Position numbers and translations under genes: made by a program. 64,000 nt of DNA from Lysobacteraceae bacterium (GTDB lineage Bacteria; Bdellovibrionota; UBA1018; JAGTJX01). The notes below the pieces were generated by a model. That model was not told the origin of the DNA, did no database searches, and worked only from the letters and a program-made list of their open reading frames with translations. The stretch is from assembly GCA_023657465.1 (NCBI GenBank), contig JAGTJX010000004.1:154904-218903 (forward strand), given 5' to 3'. Positions within the stretch are counted from its first letter, which is position 1. Each line of letters begins with the position of its first letter. Below, in pieces: positions 16,510 through 57,580 of this stretch.

Positions 16510-16514
16510 AGGGT

Positions 16515-16554
16515 TTGACAACATATAATATATTAGGCATAATATATTATATGT
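16515..16554 (+). promoter_or_regulatory. Sigma70-like promoter with an overlapping 15-bp-arm palindromic operator; leaderless start of the XRE gene
   Basis: TTGACA at 16515-16520, 17 bp, then CATAAT at 16538-16543; the ATG at 16551 falls at the predicted +1. The perfect inverted repeat is ACATATAATATATTA-ggca-TAATATATTATATGT at 16521-16554. Confidence 0.55.
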
Positions 16555-17054
16555 TTGGAGCTCAAATTCGAGAGCAGAGAAAATCGATGAAATTGAGCCA
16601 GAGTGCTCTCTCAAGCCTCTCAGGAGTGAGTGTGCCAATGATCCAGCTCATAGAGTCTGAGAAGGGGAACCCTTCGATCAAGACATTGGTCATGATCTTA
16701 GATTCTCTCCACATGAAGTTAGTATGTAAGGAAGAAAAATTTAATTGGGATCGGTTTGCTAGGCATACAGCTCTACTTTATGAGCAAGGGACAGTCGAGA
16801 GAGCTTTCTGTACTGAGCAAACCCTAGTGAGTTGCCTCATTGCCGCAGGTGAAACCCTTGCTAAAGAAAAAGACCAGAGGAAGAAAGAAGCCTTGGAAAG
16901 TACCCTCTTGGCTCTTGAGTTGTACTACCCTGATTTCTATAGGCAGCTACTAGTTGAATCTTCAGCTTTAAAAAAACTATGTGCTTTCTCGATTTCTGGT
17001 CGACATATCAAGTTGAAGCGAATCGCTTTAGAGAGACTGAAGGACTACCTCTAG
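16551..17054 (+). CDS. XRE-family HTH transcriptional regulator with a C-terminal domain of unknown function
   Basis: N-terminal HTH_3 (QIREQRKSMKLSQSALSSLSGVSVPMIQLIESEKGNPSIKTLVMILDSL). The track ORF begins at a TTG at 16515 inside the operator, so the ATG at 16551 is preferred. Its stop overlaps the next start (TAGATG). Confidence 0.7.
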   Translation: MFGAQIREQRKSMKLSQSALSSLSGVSVPMIQLIESEKGNPSIKTLVMILDSLHMKLVCKEEKFNWDRFARHTALLYEQGTVERAFCTEQTLVSCLIAAGETLAKEKDQRKKEALESTLLALELYYPDFYRQLLVESSALKKLCAFSISGRHIKLKRIALERLKDYL

Positions 17055-17549
17055 ATGAAGACACTGAATGCAAAACTACTAGAGCAGTTTTTAAACCTAG
17101 TCATTAAAAAGCTTGAAGGTGAGTGGGTGCTACTAGGTGGCACTCTTATTCCCGCATTAGGGATCGAATATAGACAGACAGTCGATATTGATTTTGTACC
17201 TGCAGGAGAGATGACCAATAAAACATCATTGGAACTCATGGGCTTGGCAGAGAAGCTGGGAATTGCCGTTGAGTCGATCAATGCATCGGCGGGATTCTTC
17301 TTAAAGAAGATTCCAGATTTCTCTGAGCGTTTAGTCAGCCTGAAGAAGTCCAAGAGTTGCACAATCTACCGACCTACTTTGGATCTCTACCTTGAATTGA
17401 AACTCAATCGCGCTTCTCCCACGGATCTCACGGACTGCATACAATTAATCCAATATTGTAAGAAAATGAAACTAGCTGAAGAGTTAAAGTCTGGGAGCAA
17501 GTTTTTAGAGAAAAAAGACCGTAGAGATATTTTGAGATACTTTGGATAA
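17055..17549 (+). CDS. Minimal nucleotidyltransferase-fold protein (AbiEii/MenT-like motif)
   Basis: Motif LLGGTLIPALGIEYRQTVDIDFV fits the NTase signature hGG-x14-[DE]hDh. It is translationally coupled to the upstream XRE gene. Confidence 0.5.
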   Translation: MKTLNAKLLEQFLNLVIKKLEGEWVLLGGTLIPALGIEYRQTVDIDFVPAGEMTNKTSLELMGLAEKLGIAVESINASAGFFLKKIPDFSERLVSLKKSKSCTIYRPTLDLYLELKLNRASPTDLTDCIQLIQYCKKMKLAEELKSGSKFLEKKDRRDILRYFG

Positions 17550-17550
17550 T

Positions 17551-17646
17551 CCCTACCGGATTAAATGGACAATACTGAATAGAGTGATGGCAGCGTAGTA
17601 GTGAGTGTTCTTTCATAGAAATGTAAGTCCGTCTCTGACGGTTTTT
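17551..17646 (+). repeat. Intergenic repeat family copy R1 (core plus hairpin), ending in a Rho-independent terminator
   Basis: Core TACCGGATTAAATGGA at 17554-17569, then ...GTTCTTTCATAGAAATGTAAG, then CCGTC-tct-GACGG at 17629-17641 followed by TTTTT. It starts 2 nt after the NTase stop. Confidence 0.8.
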
Positions 17647-17783
17647 CACATCGTCTCAGTGATTGCGCTTGCGTATTGCCTCAAAAGTAAGTGTTACTTA
17701 TGAGCAGTAGGTCAACAGGAGTGAGAGTTAATGTAACTTAATTTAATTTAAAACACTGACAGCAAGAAACAATGTTAAAAAAT

Positions 17784-18533
17784 TCATCGTTTGATTTGCG
17801 ATACAACAATGTACCCTCGCGCTTTTGAAACACCCTTGTCTTGTGTATTCATTCCCTTAAAAAAGGTTTCGGTAGAAACCCAATAGGGTGTGTACCACTC
17901 GCGATCAACGTCTAAAACTAGTACTTTTTGTGAAGTTTTGTCATAAGCAGCGATCGGAGAAATATGACCCGCGGGTTCCGATTCCCCAGTAAAAACGGCT
18001 TGATCAAAATTAGCAATAATAAAGTCTTGATCTGTTTTCTCGTTCTCAGTGAAGTCACTTAGATAACCGTTTATAGCGCCTTTTTCTAGTGAATCGACGT
18101 GTATAACTTTAACTTGGTATTGATCTGGGAAATAAATATTGAGTGCTTTTTTTAAAACTTCTGAAAATCGATCCATTGAAAAGCATTTGTGATCTTTCAT
18201 GGCTTGGATCCATTCAGGGTCATTAACTTTTGCAACGATATCGGCTTGTGTAATGTTTTTTGTTTCAGAATCTAAGTCTTGCTTATTTTTAAGGGCATTG
18301 AAGATCGCCGCCATAGAGGCCGTTTGACACATGTTTTCTCCCTGCGGAACATAATGAAAAATCATAGCCCAAAAATCAGGAGCATGATTTTTTTGCAAAT
18401 ACTTATGATCGTCAATGGCTCTTAGAGTTTCAGGTGCGTATTTAGATTTAGAAAAAGCTTGGGGAGCAAGAGTGAAAGCTATTATTAGTAATGGACTAAA
18501 AAAAACGCTTGTTTGTTTTGATACGTATTTCAT
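17784..18533 (-). CDS. Secreted phytochelatin-synthase-like (papain-fold) peptidase
   Basis: Signal peptide plus a conserved PCS catalytic triad context: Cys in QGENMCQTASMAAIFNAL, His in PAGHISPIAAYD, Asp in KVLVLDVDREWYTPYWV. This closely parallels the cyanobacterial PCS-like enzyme. Confidence 0.8.
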   Translation of the reverse strand: MKYVSKQTSVFFSPLLIIAFTLAPQAFSKSKYAPETLRAIDDHKYLQKNHAPDFWAMIFHYVPQGENMCQTASMAAIFNALKNKQDLDSETKNITQADIVAKVNDPEWIQAMKDHKCFSMDRFSEVLKKALNIYFPDQYQVKVIHVDSLEKGAINGYLSDFTENEKTDQDFIIANFDQAVFTGESEPAGHISPIAAYDKTSQKVLVLDVDREWYTPYWVSTETFFKGMNTQDKGVSKARGYIVVSQIKR

Positions 18534-18566
18534 AGCTGTAAATTTTACTCATATTTCTTGGCATTG

Positions 18567-18738
18567 CAATACCAATACTCCCAATAAGCGGTTTAGTAAG
18601 TTTGGCGTCTTTTAAAACCCAGTCTACCGGATTAAATGGAAAATACTTCATAGAGGTTGGGTGGTTGAATTTGGAGCGTTAATCCATAGAAATGGAAGCG
18701 CCCGAAAGTTATTTACCTTCAGGCGTTCGTGATTTTTT
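18567..18738 (+). repeat. Intergenic repeat family copy R2 (5' module plus core plus hairpin)
   Basis: CCAATACTCCCAATAAGCGGTTTAGTAAGTTTGGCG is followed by the core TACCGGATTAAATGGA at 18625-18640, then GGGTGG..GGAGCGTT..TCCATAGAAATGGAAGCGCCCGAAAGT, ending GATTTTTT. Confidence 0.8.
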
Positions 18739-18760
18739 CATTAATATGAGCAGTTGGTGC

Positions 18761-19690
18761 TCAGGGTTTCACATCTTCTCCAATTTCCAGAATTTCAGCA
18801 TCATAGATGGTCTCGCTCATTAGATCGGGAAAATTGGTGATTGAATTACCGTATTCCTTGGAGCCAGGTAAGACACGTACTTGAATCTGTTGATCAGCGA
18901 CTTGGCTCGAAAGTTCGTAATCACGAATCAAAACTTTAACCATGTTTATTTTGGAGTCCGGCATTGGAAATGTTAAGTCTAACTTGTGTTGTGAGCCATC
19001 CAATTTAGGTAGCGTATTCAGCTGTTGGTTATAAAAATACTCATTAAGATCCTTTTTGTTTTGTTCAGAAAGATCTGCAGTTAAATGGATTTCAGAAACC
19101 GGCGGTAAGATACTACTTAGCATTTGTTTCCAAGTATCCGGTAGGAAGCTTTGGTCTGATTTCAGGTCAAAGGCAATAAATAGTTTCTCACCGTTGGTTC
19201 CCGTTAATTTATTCACACGAAGATGATCAATTAAGCCACTTGTACCTGGCTCGGGGAGGGAAAATAAAAGCATCGTGAGAAACGTGTAATTTGTTTTACC
19301 ATTTTTCTTAAGGAGCCCATTAGTTTTCTGTTTTTCCCATTCAGCAATTTTAGTGTTCTGAGTTTCAATGGTATTTGTCTGAGTGACTTTGGCAGTACAC
19401 TGGCCGACTGGAGGTATGATGTTTCCAGGATTTTTTGGATCTACGCCGTGAATATAACCTTCGTTTGTATTATCCTCTAAATCATCTTTTAGATCAGCAA
19501 CGCGAGTGGAATCGTTCATTGGACGTTTATCATTAATGTTGATCCTGTTCAAAACGTCATAGGGCAATTGAAGAAATATGGGTGACTCGCATTGAAAGTT
19601 TTTGAATTCAGTCTTTTGATGAACTTTGACGTGTTCCCCAGCATTTGCTGTGAGCGATACAAGGCATGTAAATATTAATACCTGCTTCAT
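18761..19690 (-). CDS. Secreted hypothetical protein
   Basis: Signal peptide MKQVLIFTCLVSLTANA (start moved to M6 of the track ORF). I recognise no domain. Confidence 0.5.
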   Translation of the reverse strand: MKQVLIFTCLVSLTANAGEHVKVHQKTEFKNFQCESPIFLQLPYDVLNRININDKRPMNDSTRVADLKDDLEDNTNEGYIHGVDPKNPGNIIPPVGQCTAKVTQTNTIETQNTKIAEWEKQKTNGLLKKNGKTNYTFLTMLLFSLPEPGTSGLIDHLRVNKLTGTNGEKLFIAFDLKSDQSFLPDTWKQMLSSILPPVSEIHLTADLSEQNKKDLNEYFYNQQLNTLPKLDGSQHKLDLTFPMPDSKINMVKVLIRDYELSSQVADQQIQVRVLPGSKEYGNSITNFPDLMSETIYDAEILEIGEDVKP

Positions 19691-19783
19691 AAAAATTCCT
19701 TCCACTCTAAATCCAATGGTTACCGAGCATTGTCCGAACCAAAACTCTTCAAATTAACAAGCAAATCAAACGTGTCTAATATT

Positions 19784-19806
19784 GCTCTATAGAGCACATA
19801 ATGTGC
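19784..19806. promoter_or_regulatory. Overlapping palindromes GCTCTATAGAGC and GCACAtaaTGTGC upstream of brnT
   Basis: Perfect 12-bp and 5+5 palindromes sit in the divergent intergenic region 19706-19953. They are candidate operator sites. Confidence 0.3.
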
Positions 19807-19918
19807 CAGGTTTTGCAGAGGTCTTTAGTGGGTAAAATTGAGAAGCAGGTTTGAACCCTGCCTATACCTAGAACAGCTGTCCAATGATTAGTCGGTCCAA
19901 ATATGCTTTATATGCTGC

Positions 19919-19947
19919 TTGACAATTGAGTACAAAAGGCACACAAT
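19919..19947 (+). promoter_or_regulatory. Promoter of brnTA (leaderless)
   Basis: TTGACA at 19919-19924, 17 bp, then CACAAT at 19942-19947; the ATG at 19954 lies 7 nt after the -10. Confidence 0.45.
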
Positions 19948-19953
19948 AGATTC

Positions 19954-20223
19954 ATGAGCTTTAAGTGGGATGAGGCTAAGAACAAGAAGCTAGCCGCTCA
20001 GGGCAGACCGGGATTTGAATTTTTCGTAGAGGCCTTTGATGAAGGGCTTATTTATTTCGAAGGCGAGAATACAAAACGTCCGGGACAGGGTGTTTTTGTC
20101 GTGATCATTAATGAGTATGCTCACGTAGTGCCTTATGAAGACAGAGGAGATCATCTCTTTTTAAGAACACTTTATCCATCCCGTAAGTGGCAGGTAGTAT
20201 ATGAAAAGGAGCAGAAGAAATGA
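19954..20223 (+). CDS. brnT: BrnT-family (DUF497, RelE/ParE-fold) toxin
   Basis: FKWDEAKNKKL...FEFFVEAF at the N-terminus and LFLRTLYPSRK at the C-terminus match DUF497. Its stop overlaps the next start (ATGA). Confidence 0.75.
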   Translation: MSFKWDEAKNKKLAAQGRPGFEFFVEAFDEGLIYFEGENTKRPGQGVFVVIINEYAHVVPYEDRGDHLFLRTLYPSRKWQVVYEKEQKK

Positions 20224-20531
20224 AAAATGCGAATAAAAAGACTTTAGCTGGATATGATCCAAAAAAAGTTAAGCTTTCTCGTGATGAGCAAGAGTTTGAA
20301 GACAACCTTGTGATCGCTGATTATTCTTCTAAGAGCTCAAAATCTGAACGTATGAACATTCGTTTGCCAGAAGAGGACTTGCTCAAGTTACAAAAGCTAG
20401 CGCTCAAGCATGGACTTCCCTACCAAACCTTAGTGGGCTCAGTGATTCATCGCTACGTTACTGATCAGTTGGTGGATTTAGAGGAAGCCAAAAAAATCCT
20501 TGCTGCGCCTCCTGCTAAAAAGAGAGCTTAG
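20220..20531 (+). CDS. brnA: BrnA-family antitoxin (RHH-like)
   Basis: MNIRLPEEDLLKLQKLALKHGLPYQTLVGSVIHRYV matches the BrnA consensus. Confidence 0.75.
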   Translation: MKNANKKTLAGYDPKKVKLSRDEQEFEDNLVIADYSSKSSKSERMNIRLPEEDLLKLQKLALKHGLPYQTLVGSVIHRYVTDQLVDLEEAKKILAAPPAKKRA

Positions 20532-20535
20532 ATTT

Positions 20536-20627
20536 TTACAGGAAATAACGTTCCAAACTTTGAAGCTGGTTTCTATTAAAGAATTGCCAATATTCCCATT
20601 AAGCTTTTTAGTTGATTTGGCGCTCAA
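20536..20627 (+). repeat. Intergenic repeat family copy R3 (5' module only)
   Basis: AAATAACGTTCCAAACTTTGAAGCTGGTTTCTATTAAAGAATTGCCAATATTCCCATTAAGCTTTTTAGTTGATTTGGCG is near-identical to 58812-58875 and related to segments of R2 and R5. It starts 5 nt after the brnA stop. Confidence 0.7.
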
Positions 20628-37814: not shown

Positions 37815-37863
37815 TTGACATTAACGTCCATAACGTTAATAATGATAACGTTATGGACGTTAA
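37815..37863 (+). promoter_or_regulatory. Promoter plus perfect 18-bp-arm inverted repeat enclosing the start codon of the COG1373 ATPase gene
   Basis: TTGACA at 37815-37820, about 16 bp, then TAATAAT at 37837-37843. The repeat TTAACGTCCATAACGTTA (37821-37838), spacer ataatga, then TAACGTTATGGACGTTAA (37846-37863) places the ATG at 37853 inside arm 2. Confidence 0.5.
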
Positions 37864-39229
37864 TGAAAGAAACCGTAAATTAGCTGCAGGAGAGATCAAT
37901 CGAGATGATCTTTGGCCTAAGGTTGAGGAATGGAGAAACCAACCCCTAAATTTTAAATTCAATTTTGGACTAGATCAGCTGCCCGAGGAGCCTGGGATGA
38001 TCTTTGTTCGTGGCCCTAGACAGTACGGCAAAAGTACATGGCTGGAATTAGCATTACTCGATACAGTCGAAGACTTCGGTAAGGGGTCAGGATATTTTCT
38101 CAATGGAGATGAGCTCATTGATGCAAATGATTTAGAAAAAAACATATTAGAAGTCTCAACTGCATTTAGTAAAAAAGCAAAAGTTAAAAGACTTTTTATA
38201 GATGAAATTACATCAATTATTGGATGGGAAAAGGTCTTAAAAAAAATCGTTGATCGTGGTGAACTAAAAGATGTTCTTTTTGTAACGACGGGTTCAAACG
38301 CAGCAGACTTACGACGAGGAGTCGAGCGTTTGCCGGGACGCAAAGGTAAGCTCAATCGTACCGATTATATTTTTACAGGGATTTCTTATAAAGATTTTTA
38401 TTCACAGTGTTCTAAAACATTCGAAGACAAGACATGGATAGCCTATCTCCTCACGGGTGGTTCACCTATTGCAGCAAAAGAAATTTGGCAGTTCGAGCAC
38501 ATCCCCGATTACTTTTATGAAATTAATCGTGATTGGGTATTAGGTGAACTAGCGAAGAGTGGAAGATCGAGATCCTATGTCCTGTCAGTATTGAAAACAA
38601 TTCTCAATAAAGGAATATCGCGAATAGGGTATCTCGGACTAGCAAAAGAATCAGGGTTGGCTAACAACACATTGGCGGCGGAATATGTTGAGCAATTATC
38701 TGATCTGCTTTGTATTACTGCGTCTCATCAGTGGGATGCTGATAAAGAAGTCACCTTACAGAGAAAACCGTGCAAGTTTCATCCCATTAATTTGTCAATG
38801 GCGCTTTCGTTTTACCCGAATAGACTCAACAGTGTTCATGAATTTGAACAGATATCTGATCAAGAGAAAGCAAAATGGCTAGAGTGGCTCGTAGCTCAAG
38901 AACTCTTTCGTAGGCAGTGCATTCTAGGTCAAAAAATTCCAGATAACCTGCATTATTGGAGCTCAAAGGAACATGAGATTGATTTTGTTTCAAGTCGAGG
39001 AGATTTGTTTGAAGTGAAGTTGGGGCAGTCGAATCCTTTGGAGTTTGCTTGGTTTTCAAAAGTATTTCCTAAGAAGAAATTATTGGTCATCAATAAGAAA
39101 GAATTTGAAACGAGTCATGTCAAAGGAATTACTATAGAGCAATTCTTATTGAGTGACGGATTTCCGCATCCTTACCCAGGAGAGGTAGATGATCCAAATA
39201 TTTATAACGACTACTCTCGTTTTAACTAG
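37853..39229 (+). CDS. COG1373-family AAA+ ATPase (AAA_14 plus DUF4143)
   Basis: Walker A VRGPRQYGKSTWL, Walker B LFIDEIT and a DUF4143-like C-terminus. The gene looks AT-rich by eye relative to gpsA and hpt. Confidence 0.75.
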   Translation: MDVNERNRKLAAGEINRDDLWPKVEEWRNQPLNFKFNFGLDQLPEEPGMIFVRGPRQYGKSTWLELALLDTVEDFGKGSGYFLNGDELIDANDLEKNILEVSTAFSKKAKVKRLFIDEITSIIGWEKVLKKIVDRGELKDVLFVTTGSNAADLRRGVERLPGRKGKLNRTDYIFTGISYKDFYSQCSKTFEDKTWIAYLLTGGSPIAAKEIWQFEHIPDYFYEINRDWVLGELAKSGRSRSYVLSVLKTILNKGISRIGYLGLAKESGLANNTLAAEYVEQLSDLLCITASHQWDADKEVTLQRKPCKFHPINLSMALSFYPNRLNSVHEFEQISDQEKAKWLEWLVAQELFRRQCILGQKIPDNLHYWSSKEHEIDFVSSRGDLFEVKLGQSNPLEFAWFSKVFPKKKLLVINKKEFETSHVKGITIEQFLLSDGFPHPYPGEVDDPNIYNDYSRFN

Positions 39230-55709: not shown

Positions 55710-55800
55710 ATAGTACCTGATTAAATGGAATTTCTATCTGGAAGAAGAGTGGGCGGAGTTGGGAGCGTTCTTTCATAGAAATGAAAACGCCCGAAAGTGA
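55710..55800 (+). repeat. Intergenic repeat family copy R4 (core plus hairpin)
   Basis: Core TACCTGATTAAATGGA at 55714-55729, then GGGCGG..GGAGCGTTCTTTCATAGAAATGAAAACGCCCGAAAGT. It is about 75-80% identical to R2 over ~95 nt. Confidence 0.8.
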
Positions 55801-57424: not shown

Positions 57425-57580
57425 ACCGGAAATATTTGCTAATATTTTCATTAAGCGTTTTAGTTGATCTGGCGGTTTTTGAAATCGAGTCTACCTGATT
57501 AAATGGACACTCTATAATAGAGGAGGAGTGTCTTTTAGTGAACGATACTTCATAGGAATTTGAGGGACTTAATGCCAATT
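57425..57580 (+). repeat. Intergenic repeat family copy R5 (5' module plus core plus degenerate hairpin)
   Basis: TTGCTAATATTTTCATTAAGCGTTTTAGTTGATCTGGCG is followed by the core TACCTGATTAAATGGA at 57492-57507, then ..ATAGAGGAGGAGTG..CTTCATAGGAATTTGAGGG. Confidence 0.75.

Follow-up and report, generated by a model that had tools for sequence, protein, structure and literature searches.

The closest described relatives of the locus that we present here are the AbiE systems of Streptococcus agalactiae and of lactococcal plasmids, together with the MenAT3 and MenAT4 systems of M. tuberculosis, all of which are bicistronic, with the antitoxin gene located first. The antitoxins of these systems consist of two domains (PMC7319586): an N-terminal DNA-binding part, which represses the system's own expression through inverted repeats at the promoter, and a C-terminal part, which neutralises the toxin. 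Their toxins are polymerase-beta-type nucleotidyltransferases (NTases) with the signature hGG...R-x-T-x-D-x-D, followed by a conserved lysine and a DxxD motif. Each of these traits has a counterpart, with the DNA-binding and neutralising parts being putative and the lysine and DxxD being matched by inspection, in a two-gene module that begins at position 16515 of the analysed stretch of contig JAGTJX010000004.1; this whole stretch, 64 kb long and with a guanine-cytosine (GC) content of 44.7%, is referred to as the window. The module encodes an XRE-family regulator and a minimal NTase, and our reading, to which we assign a rough probability of 0.55, is that the pair may be an autoregulated variant of the AbiE/MenAT type of toxin–antitoxin (TA) system, assembled from different and smaller parts.

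Three further groups of described systems are relevant to the comparison. MenAT1 of M. tuberculosis (Rv0078B/Rv0078A) is the nearest in size: its small toxin, MenT1 (chains of 184-196 residues), combines an alpha/beta NTase lobe with a helical bundle in a bi-lobed fold, to which the modelled NTase of the module bears a tentative likeness, and its antitoxin, MenA1, has 68 amino acids (aa), similar to the ~70-aa helical core of the partner described here; between the partner domains, however, no sequence similarity was detected. MenAT1 is reportedly devoid of transcriptional autoregulation (PMC11375011), whereas the partner in the module is fused to an XRE helix-turn-helix (HTH) domain with a conserved operator. 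The XRE-type antitoxins of type II systems (HipB, HigA and the Y4mF family) resemble the first protein of the module in their N-terminal HTH and in operator palindromes that overlap the promoter, but the partner toxin is here a putative NTase instead of a kinase or an RNase, and the extra C-terminal domain is novel. Finally, the type VII system HepT/MntA is also a two-gene module with a small polymerase-beta-type NTase, with the difference that the NTase is there the antitoxin and acts on a HEPN RNase, which is characterised by an Rx4-6H motif.

The XRE-family gene (16551-17054, plus strand), the putative antitoxin gene, is located directly 5' of the gene for the putative toxin, an NTase of 164 aa (17055-17549, plus strand), whose open reading frame (ORF) begins directly after the stop codon of the XRE gene, at a TAGATG junction. 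The original prediction, made from the sequence of the window, had described this coupling and the hGG-x14-DIDF signature of the NTase correctly, and the coupling is conserved. Related loci were taken from metagenome contigs and from a genome scan, in which a 9-sequence alignment was the query against one genome per species (185,579 species representatives): the window has the XRE gene with its C-terminal domain directly 5' of the NTase gene, as do 23 of the 24 related loci, and the two genes are joined by a stop/start overlap (mostly ATGA) or by a zero gap at 17 of the 21 distinct loci. One of the related loci, L001, comes from a close relative with a syntenic backbone, in which 10 ORFs are shared with the window at 78% aa identity, including genes for a UvrD-like protein, a DUF6929 protein, an M28 peptidase and a cytidylyltransferase-like protein.

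The regulatory region of the module extends across the start codon of the XRE gene. A -35 hexamer, TTGACA (16515-16520, plus strand), and a -10 hexamer, CATAAT (16538-16543, plus strand), are separated by 17 bp, exactly as had been claimed; the pair matches the sigma-70 consensus at 11 of 12 positions and ranks at the top of a scan of the local 2.2 kb, while a TTGAxx-type hexamer recurs in most homologous loci, 17 bp upstream of the -10 hexamer. The putative operator (16520-16555) is a perfect palindrome that covers the spacer, the -10 hexamer and the start codon; this much agrees with the original prediction, but its arms are 16 bp long and not 15 bp, with AACATATAATATATTA (16520-16535) and TAATATATTATATGTT (16540-16555) flanking the 4-bp loop ggca. 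In comparison, when the window was simulated 100 times with a first-order Markov model, the longest arm reached 13 bp. The palindrome contains the core ATAATA|TATTA twice (16525-16536 and 16539-16550); both in the window and in L001, the two palindromic cores are 14 bp apart and jointly form the long palindrome.

The start codon of the XRE gene is located at 16551-16553 (not at 16552), within the right arm of the palindrome and 7 nt past the end of the -10 hexamer. This start is backed by the match to the Pfam family HTH_3, which begins at residue 6, by homologues that align from the same methionine and by a confidently modelled first helix (residues 2-12). No Shine-Dalgarno-like motif was found upstream of this ATG in the window, and transcription is predicted to begin at or beside the A of the ATG, which would yield a leaderless mRNA.

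The leaderless-type layout, which had been proposed for the window, is conserved among homologues. Within a set of 21 distinct homologous upstream regions, 15 contain a promoter that matches the consensus at 8 or more of 12 positions, with the -10 hexamer ending 4-9 nt before the start codon (mean of 1.7 and maximum of 7 in 500 shuffles), and 19 contain no Shine-Dalgarno-like motif; 13 of them have, between -45 and +6, an inverted repeat without mismatches whose arms measure 7 bp or more (mean of 0.9 and maximum of 4 in 300 shuffles). The palindromes of the homologues vary in sequence, but their symmetry and their AT-rich core (...TATTA|TAATA... or ...ATAATA|TATTAT...) are kept, and the recognition region of the HTH is strongly conserved. 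With regard to L001, the regulatory block from the -35 hexamer to just past the ATG (16515-16560) is identical at 45 of 46 positions, the sole change being located in the loop; no other stretch is conserved as well between the window and L001, and the module is 69% identical as a whole. From the recurrence across upstream regions, we infer that a leaderless mRNA and an operator placed over the -10 hexamer and the start site are family traits, and the conservation of this layout provides the strongest computational support for the predicted autorepression. In locus L003 (3258-3310) and in the upstream region of L017, the palindrome and the promoter are retained, but a leader of 14-20 nt with a Shine-Dalgarno-like motif (GGAG/AAGG) is present, so that the leaderless layout is common in the family without being universal.

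The palindrome may have an additional role at the level of RNA: if transcription of the M28 gene located upstream reads through into the module, the palindrome is predicted to fold into a hairpin of -21.9 kcal/mol (z -6.7) in such a transcript, with the AUG buried in it. According to this model, the burial of the AUG would restrict efficient translation to those transcripts that originate from the module's own promoter.

A layout with the operator over the start codon is also seen elsewhere in the window: at 37815-37865, a second TTGACA promoter is followed by a palindrome, CATTAACGTCCATAACGTTA-ataatga-TAACGTTATGGACGTTAATG, whose 20-bp arms match perfectly. It extends over the spacer, a -10-like AATAAT and the start codon (ATG, 37853) of a gene for a 458-aa ATPase with AAA_14 and DUF4143 domains.

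The XRE protein has 167 aa, one fewer than originally counted, and its N-terminal HTH, located at residues 1-57 (16551-16721, plus strand), is borne out by the match to HTH_3 (residues 6-53, E 3e-9). The HTH also matches TIGR03070, the Y4mF/HipB-type antitoxin family (E 4e-11, below the cut-off of that family), and its relatives in the Protein Data Bank (PDB), which align with the HTH region only, are HigA, HipB, CylR2, SinR and the controller proteins (C-proteins) of restriction-modification systems. The AlphaFold2 (AF2) model of the protein, with a predicted local distance difference test score (pLDDT) of 86, consists of the HTH (residues 1-55), a low-confidence linker and helices at residues 89-163. 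The all-helical C-terminal domain (residues 89-167; 16815-17051, plus strand), which is the putative NTase-binding and neutralising part, has two invariant residues, R110 and R157, and two motifs, HYP ((H/Y)-(Y/F/W)-P) and a C-terminal GRxIKLxRxAL..YL.

The C-terminal domain had been described as being of no known family, and we arrive at the same result: a profile built from 19 sequences has no meaningful match in Pfam or in the PDB (best PDB E 0.85). In a database of 5.8 billion proteins, 23 of its 24 matches are XRE fusions of 150-177 aa, and the remaining one is a protein of 75 aa. A Foldseek search with the full XRE model, which had been suggested as a check, returned matches that are driven by the HTH, and no fold could be assigned to the C-terminal domain in this way. 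The suggestion that the partner might prove to be related to AbiEi/MenA or to HEPN domains found no support: the C-terminal domain has no such match, and 6y8q, the sole AbiEi structure among the fold-search matches, was matched only at noise level, and by the NTase model. The HEPN interpretation was rejected, with no conserved histidine and no Rx4-6H motif in alignments of 19-21 partner sequences.

The relationship between this domain and the NTase becomes clearer in three loci with more distantly related NTases (L024, L025/L026 and L027/L028), which lack an XRE gene and instead have a divergent gene of 75-87 aa just upstream of the NTase gene (L024 4711-4962, L025 2729-2956 and L027 20-283, all on the minus strand). 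The products of these free-standing genes have no HTH and show homology to the C-terminal domain over its final ~70 residues, with the pattern R...A...HYP/HWP...K-Q-R-R-I-A-L; the similarity (E 2e-8 to 1e-5) was detected when four small ORFs next to the NTase genes were tested specifically, and all three full-length ones matched. Since the C-terminal domain persists without the HTH in the distant loci, the helical domain is the constant companion of the NTase family and the HTH an add-on; the arrangement fits an antitoxin core that became autoregulatory by gaining a DNA-binding domain.

The family of the NTase is small: when 1.84 billion representatives were searched with its profile (E<=1e-3), 283 clusters were obtained, whose listed members have mostly ~165-180 aa. 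In the AF2 model of the NTase (pLDDT 90.4, predicted template modelling score 0.86), four helices come after an alpha/beta lobe. The NTase motif L27-G28-G29-x14-D44-I45-D46-F47 is part of a catalytic core, G28-G29...R40-Q-T42-V-D44-I-D46 (17136-17192, plus strand), which corresponds to motifs I and II and is delineated by conservation and by alignments to MenT1 and AbiEii. In 100 family members, which were used both for residue conservation and for counting Pfam matches, G22, D44 and R119 are invariant, and W24, G28, G29, R40, T42, D46, E73, N76, K116, D124 and D127 are conserved in at least 90%.

The family profiles and the structural model place the NTase near DUF6036 (PF19502), with relatedness to MenT and AbiEii. 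DUF6036, whose profile length of 164 equals the length of the NTase, matches 79 of the 100 members (best E 7e-11), whereas AbiEii (PF08843) matches 40 of them at E<0.01 (best E 1.2e-6); the family is thus nearer to DUF6036 than to AbiEii. The homologue P0009 carries a precomputed DUF6036 annotation, and the NTase of the window itself scores weakly against several AbiEii models of PADLOC. The likeness to AbiEii and MenT, which was central to the original prediction, is retained with regard to the R-x-T-x-D-x-D signature and the top structural match, and is qualified by the sub-threshold Pfam score that is reported below and by the closer affinity of the family to DUF6036.

The published definitions of the AbiEii motifs, with residues G49, G50, R63, D67 and D69, include an arginine within motif II that is found specifically in AbiEii/DUF1814 (PMC3985639). 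The NTase has the corresponding pattern, hG[GS]-x~15-DhD with an Arg in motif II. An hhalign comparison with three AbiEii/AbiGii genes, recovered from enterococcal and clostridial plasmids, gave an alignment with AbiEii (probability 82.5%, E 1e-5) that places EYRQTVDID of the NTase on DRRTTIDID, i.e. on R63-T-T65-I-D67-I-D69. In a profile alignment to MenT1 with an E of only 0.077, R40-x-T42-x-D44-x-D46 is placed on R-F-T39-R-D41-V-D. Auto-phosphorylation, which MenA1, MenA3 and AbiEi use for neutralising their toxins, takes place at the Thr/Ser that precedes the first Asp by two residues (PMC11375011; bioRxiv 10.64898/2026.01.19.700257), and T42, with its conservation of at least 90%, aligns with the phospho-acceptors T39 of MenT1 and T65 of AbiEii (S78 in MenT3). 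Further downstream, a motif III-like K116-L-x-R119, preceded by E114, is nearly invariant, with a spacing of 3 between Lys and Arg versus 7 in KLxAaxxR, and is located outside the profile alignments; a motif IV-like D124-L-T-D127 is conserved in at least 90%, with the preceding residue being Thr or variable and not Lys/Arg. A correspondence between ASPQDIQD of MenT1 and ASPTDLTD of the window was rejected: it appears only as a non-significant HMMER domain (score -1.3) and misfits the published position of D152.

The original prediction had proposed a structural search of both proteins, and for the NTase the top Foldseek match in the PDB is indeed a toxin: 8an5_B, which is MenT1 within the MenAT1 complex (probability 0.95, E 0.023, template modelling score (TM) 0.45). 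It is directly followed by LnuA (E 0.25) and ANT(2'')-Ia (E 0.26-0.36, TM 0.47-0.49), which are of similar size; since one of the 100 family members also matches the Pfam family Aminoglyc_resit, these results may be read as pointing to a small-molecule, antibiotic-type enzyme, in which case the XRE protein would be a ligand-responsive repressor with a substrate-sensing C-terminal domain. We consider this improbable: the sequence signals favour AbiEii, DUF6036 and MenT1 over the resistance enzymes, the translational coupling and the HTH-less partner domain of the distant loci favour a partnership between proteins, and no resistance-gene context was found.

The same search ranks the MntA-type minimal NTases lower (7bxo, 6m6u and 5yep, E 0.5-2.3), and NTase antitoxins exist in HEPN/MNT systems, both of which could indicate an exchange of roles similar to that in HepT/MntA, with the NTase acting as an antitoxin that nucleotidylylates a toxic C-terminal domain of the XRE protein. 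However, that domain has no conserved Rx4-6H, His or nucleotide-accepting Tyr/Ser/Thr, with only R110 and R157 being invariant, none of the 100 NTase family members matches the Pfam families of MNT antitoxins, and the NTase has the features of AbiEii-type toxins; in addition, a DNA-binding autoregulator that is encoded first is normally the antitoxin. Such a reversal strikes us as highly improbable, and we retain the assignment of the NTase as the putative toxin.

The distribution of the module has been examined across the loci of the genome scan. All 19 of these loci, which is a minimum number because the scan relied on a single peptide pattern, are located in Bdellovibrionota (Bdellovibrio, Bacteriovoracaceae, Pseudobdellovibrionaceae and metagenome-assembled genomes (MAGs) of Oligoflexia). 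The flanking ORFs are not common to the distinct loci, and the pair is located between the DUF6929 and M28 genes in L001 and after the M28 gene in the window. The gene pair is a conserved, translationally coupled and mobile unit, as supported by computation. With regard to the question raised with the original prediction, namely whether the pair is a housekeeping operon in all relatives, the pattern is not the one expected of such an operon: the distribution is patchy, the contexts differ among loci, and a selfish or accessory two-gene module would be distributed in this way. Adjacent and conserved genes in varying contexts, a DNA-binding gene in the first position and a palindrome that overlaps the promoter are the generic hallmarks of autoregulated, type II-style TA systems, and all of them are present here.

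Several results weigh against a TA function of the pair. The NTase of the window stays below the gathering thresholds of both Pfam families: it scores 19.5 bits against AbiEii (gathering 22.5, E 1e-3), over residues 16-48 only, and 18.4 bits against DUF6036 (gathering 23.6), over residues 11-129 and profile positions 8-116 of 164. The hhalign alignment with AbiEii spans only the N-terminal 43 columns (motifs I and II), the equivalence of K116, R119 and D124xxD127 to motifs III and IV rests on inspection, and the structural match to MenT1 is weak at the values given, with ANT(2'')-Ia and LnuA reaching a similar TM. The C-terminal domain of the partner has no detectable similarity to AbiEi, to MenA1 or to known antitoxins. 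Searches with tblastn against both the plasmid and the phage collections returned no relatives, and PADLOC produced sub-significant matches and no system call; the claim of an abortive-infection or phage-defence system finds no support in these results. The searchable literature contains no function, partner or toxin role for DUF6036, and we have found none that links Bdellovibrio to NTase TA systems. Moreover, AbiEii-like NTases need not be toxic, as the MenT homologue MenT2 has no detectable toxicity (PMC10435456).

These points raise the question of whether the pair is a non-toxic one, specific to Bdellovibrionota and with no role in addiction or defence: the NTase would modify RNA, protein or a nucleotide in normal physiology, the XRE protein would be its dedicated repressor, and the C-terminal domain a regulatory subunit or sensor. 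Such a pair would agree with a family that is confined to one phylum and absent from plasmids and phages, with the uncharacterised state of DUF6036 and with the precedent of MenT2; furthermore, the divergence between the window and L001 is similar for the proteins of the pair (63-79% aa identity) and for the flanks (78%), which fits a long vertical residence. On the other side, the genomic context is different at every distinct locus, with the position shifting even between close relatives; the module is rare and patchy, as seen in the number of loci and clusters relative to the collections searched; and TA modules typically show what is seen here, namely overlapping start and stop codons, a tight layout for autorepression and a catalytic signature of the toxin type with its conserved Thr. 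On balance, we judge a non-toxic role to be unlikely, although it deserves serious consideration.

The autoregulated AbiE/MenAT-like reading that we prefer must be distinguished from membership in these families. With regard to AbiE, the NTase of the module has 164 aa versus ~295-300 aa for AbiEii (279-299 aa for the plasmid AbiEii/AbiGii proteins) and is below the Pfam threshold of AbiEii; an XRE HTH_3 replaces the winged helix of COG5340/AbiEi, and the C-terminal domain is unrelated in sequence; motif III is K-x-x-R instead of KLxAaxxR, and motif IV is without the preceding basic residue; finally, the mRNA is predicted to be leaderless, and the module is located on chromosomes of Bdellovibrionota only, and not on plasmids. 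The statement that both proteins are much smaller than those of canonical AbiE is correct for AbiEii, whereas AbiEi has ~195-200 aa (594-nt coding sequence; 6y8q chain of 195 residues) and not ~290 aa as stated. With a score below the Pfam threshold, roughly half the size, an antitoxin other than AbiEi/COG5340 and mere approximations of motifs III and IV, the module resembles AbiE/MenAT without being a member by the usual criteria, and the nearest named family is DUF6036. The suggestion of a distinct small variant, as opposed to canonical AbiE, holds in size, threshold and partner alike.

Under the preferred reading, the following mechanism may be proposed. The sigma-70 promoter would fire at or beside the A of the ATG and produce a leaderless, bicistronic mRNA; dimers of the XRE HTH would bind the two AT-rich palindromic sites over the spacer, the -10 hexamer and the start point, and shut the operon off; and the NTase would be made by termination-reinitiation at TAG-ATG, at a fixed ratio to the XRE protein. 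The C-terminal helical domain (~75 aa) would bind the NTase, a polymerase-beta-type enzyme whose predicted active site is of the AbiEii/MenT kind (G28-G29, R40, T42, D44, D46, K116, R119, D124 and D127). By analogy with MenT1, MenT3 and AbiEii, free NTase would add nucleotides to the 3' ends of tRNA and stop translation, and neutralisation might occur through the covering of the active site by the partner domain, through the triggering of T42 auto-phosphorylation, or through both. The computation itself shows the gene structure, the conserved promoter and operator, the strict pairing, the mobility, the NTase fold and the catalytic signature, whereas the binding of the palindrome, the contact between the two proteins, toxicity, tRNA as the target and T42 phosphorylation are extrapolated from these.

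A bolder version may tentatively be considered: the module could represent an unrecognised TA family that is restricted to Bdellovibrionota, in which a new ~70-aa helical domain, either free or XRE-fused, neutralises the smallest known tRNA NTase of the MenT/AbiEii type (164 aa) through T42 auto-phosphorylation, in a type VII-like manner, with a leaderless mRNA, a promoter that is fully under its own operator and a read-through hairpin that buries the AUG. Taken as a whole, this combination is conceivable, and we hold it to be rather doubtful.

The candidate is plausible and internally consistent, and incremental beside the many TA families that have been predicted computationally. If the NTase is toxic, the translation-blocking MenT/AbiEii family would reach a much smaller, DUF6036-type scaffold, and the uncharacterised family DUF6036 would receive its first functional lead; if it is not, the module would be an ordinary repressor-plus-enzyme pair of limited interest. 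The partner domain, occurring both free-standing and XRE-fused, offers a natural case for the question of whether antitoxin-induced Thr auto-phosphorylation is a general means of control, whatever the fold of the antitoxin, and the module provides a compact and conserved model in which leaderless expression and operator occlusion come together, in predatory Bdellovibrionota, whose TA and defence repertoires have barely been studied.

The 3' end of the module was said to consist of the repeat R1 together with its terminator. The terminator-like hairpin is present at 17629-17646 (plus strand), where CCGTCTCTGACGG, a short GC hairpin with a 5-bp stem that is a match at the consensus level only, is followed by TTTTT. 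The copy of R1 that precedes it (17553-17628, plus strand) adjoins the module and is not part of it: its inclusion in the cassette was rejected, as no R1 copy is located downstream of the L001 pair. R1 is a dispersed repeat of ~80 nt with four intergenic copies in the window, all on the plus strand, the other three being located at 18624-18700, 55714-55790 and 57491-57570; its conserved blocks are TACC(G/T)GATTAAATGGA and CATAGAAATG, and it has neither a match in Rfam nor a convincing consensus structure.

The pair opens a 4.1-kb islet (16510-20627) between the M28 and cytidylyltransferase-like genes, which adjoin each other in L001; the GC content of the islet is 0.35-0.42 versus 0.447 for the window. 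This neighbourhood, in which another antitoxin-like pair is also found, favours the TA reading. The proteins identical to those of the window are labelled "MAG: Xanthomonadaceae bacterium" at NCBI (KA715_13545); because all 19 module-bearing genome loci belong to Bdellovibrionota, and in view of the GC content of the window, this label is probably wrong. The islet also holds a phytochelatin-synthase-like gene (17784-18533, minus strand, PF05023 E 2e-26), an unannotated gene of 314 aa and a second two-gene pair with an ATGA overlap (19954-20531), which encodes proteins of 89 aa and 103 aa. The 89-aa protein, which starts with MSFKWDEAKNKKL, has no Pfam match and is BrnT-like by eye, while the 103-aa protein has a sub-threshold match to CopG_antitoxin (E 5e-4); this second pair is possibly a BrnT/BrnA-like TA system.

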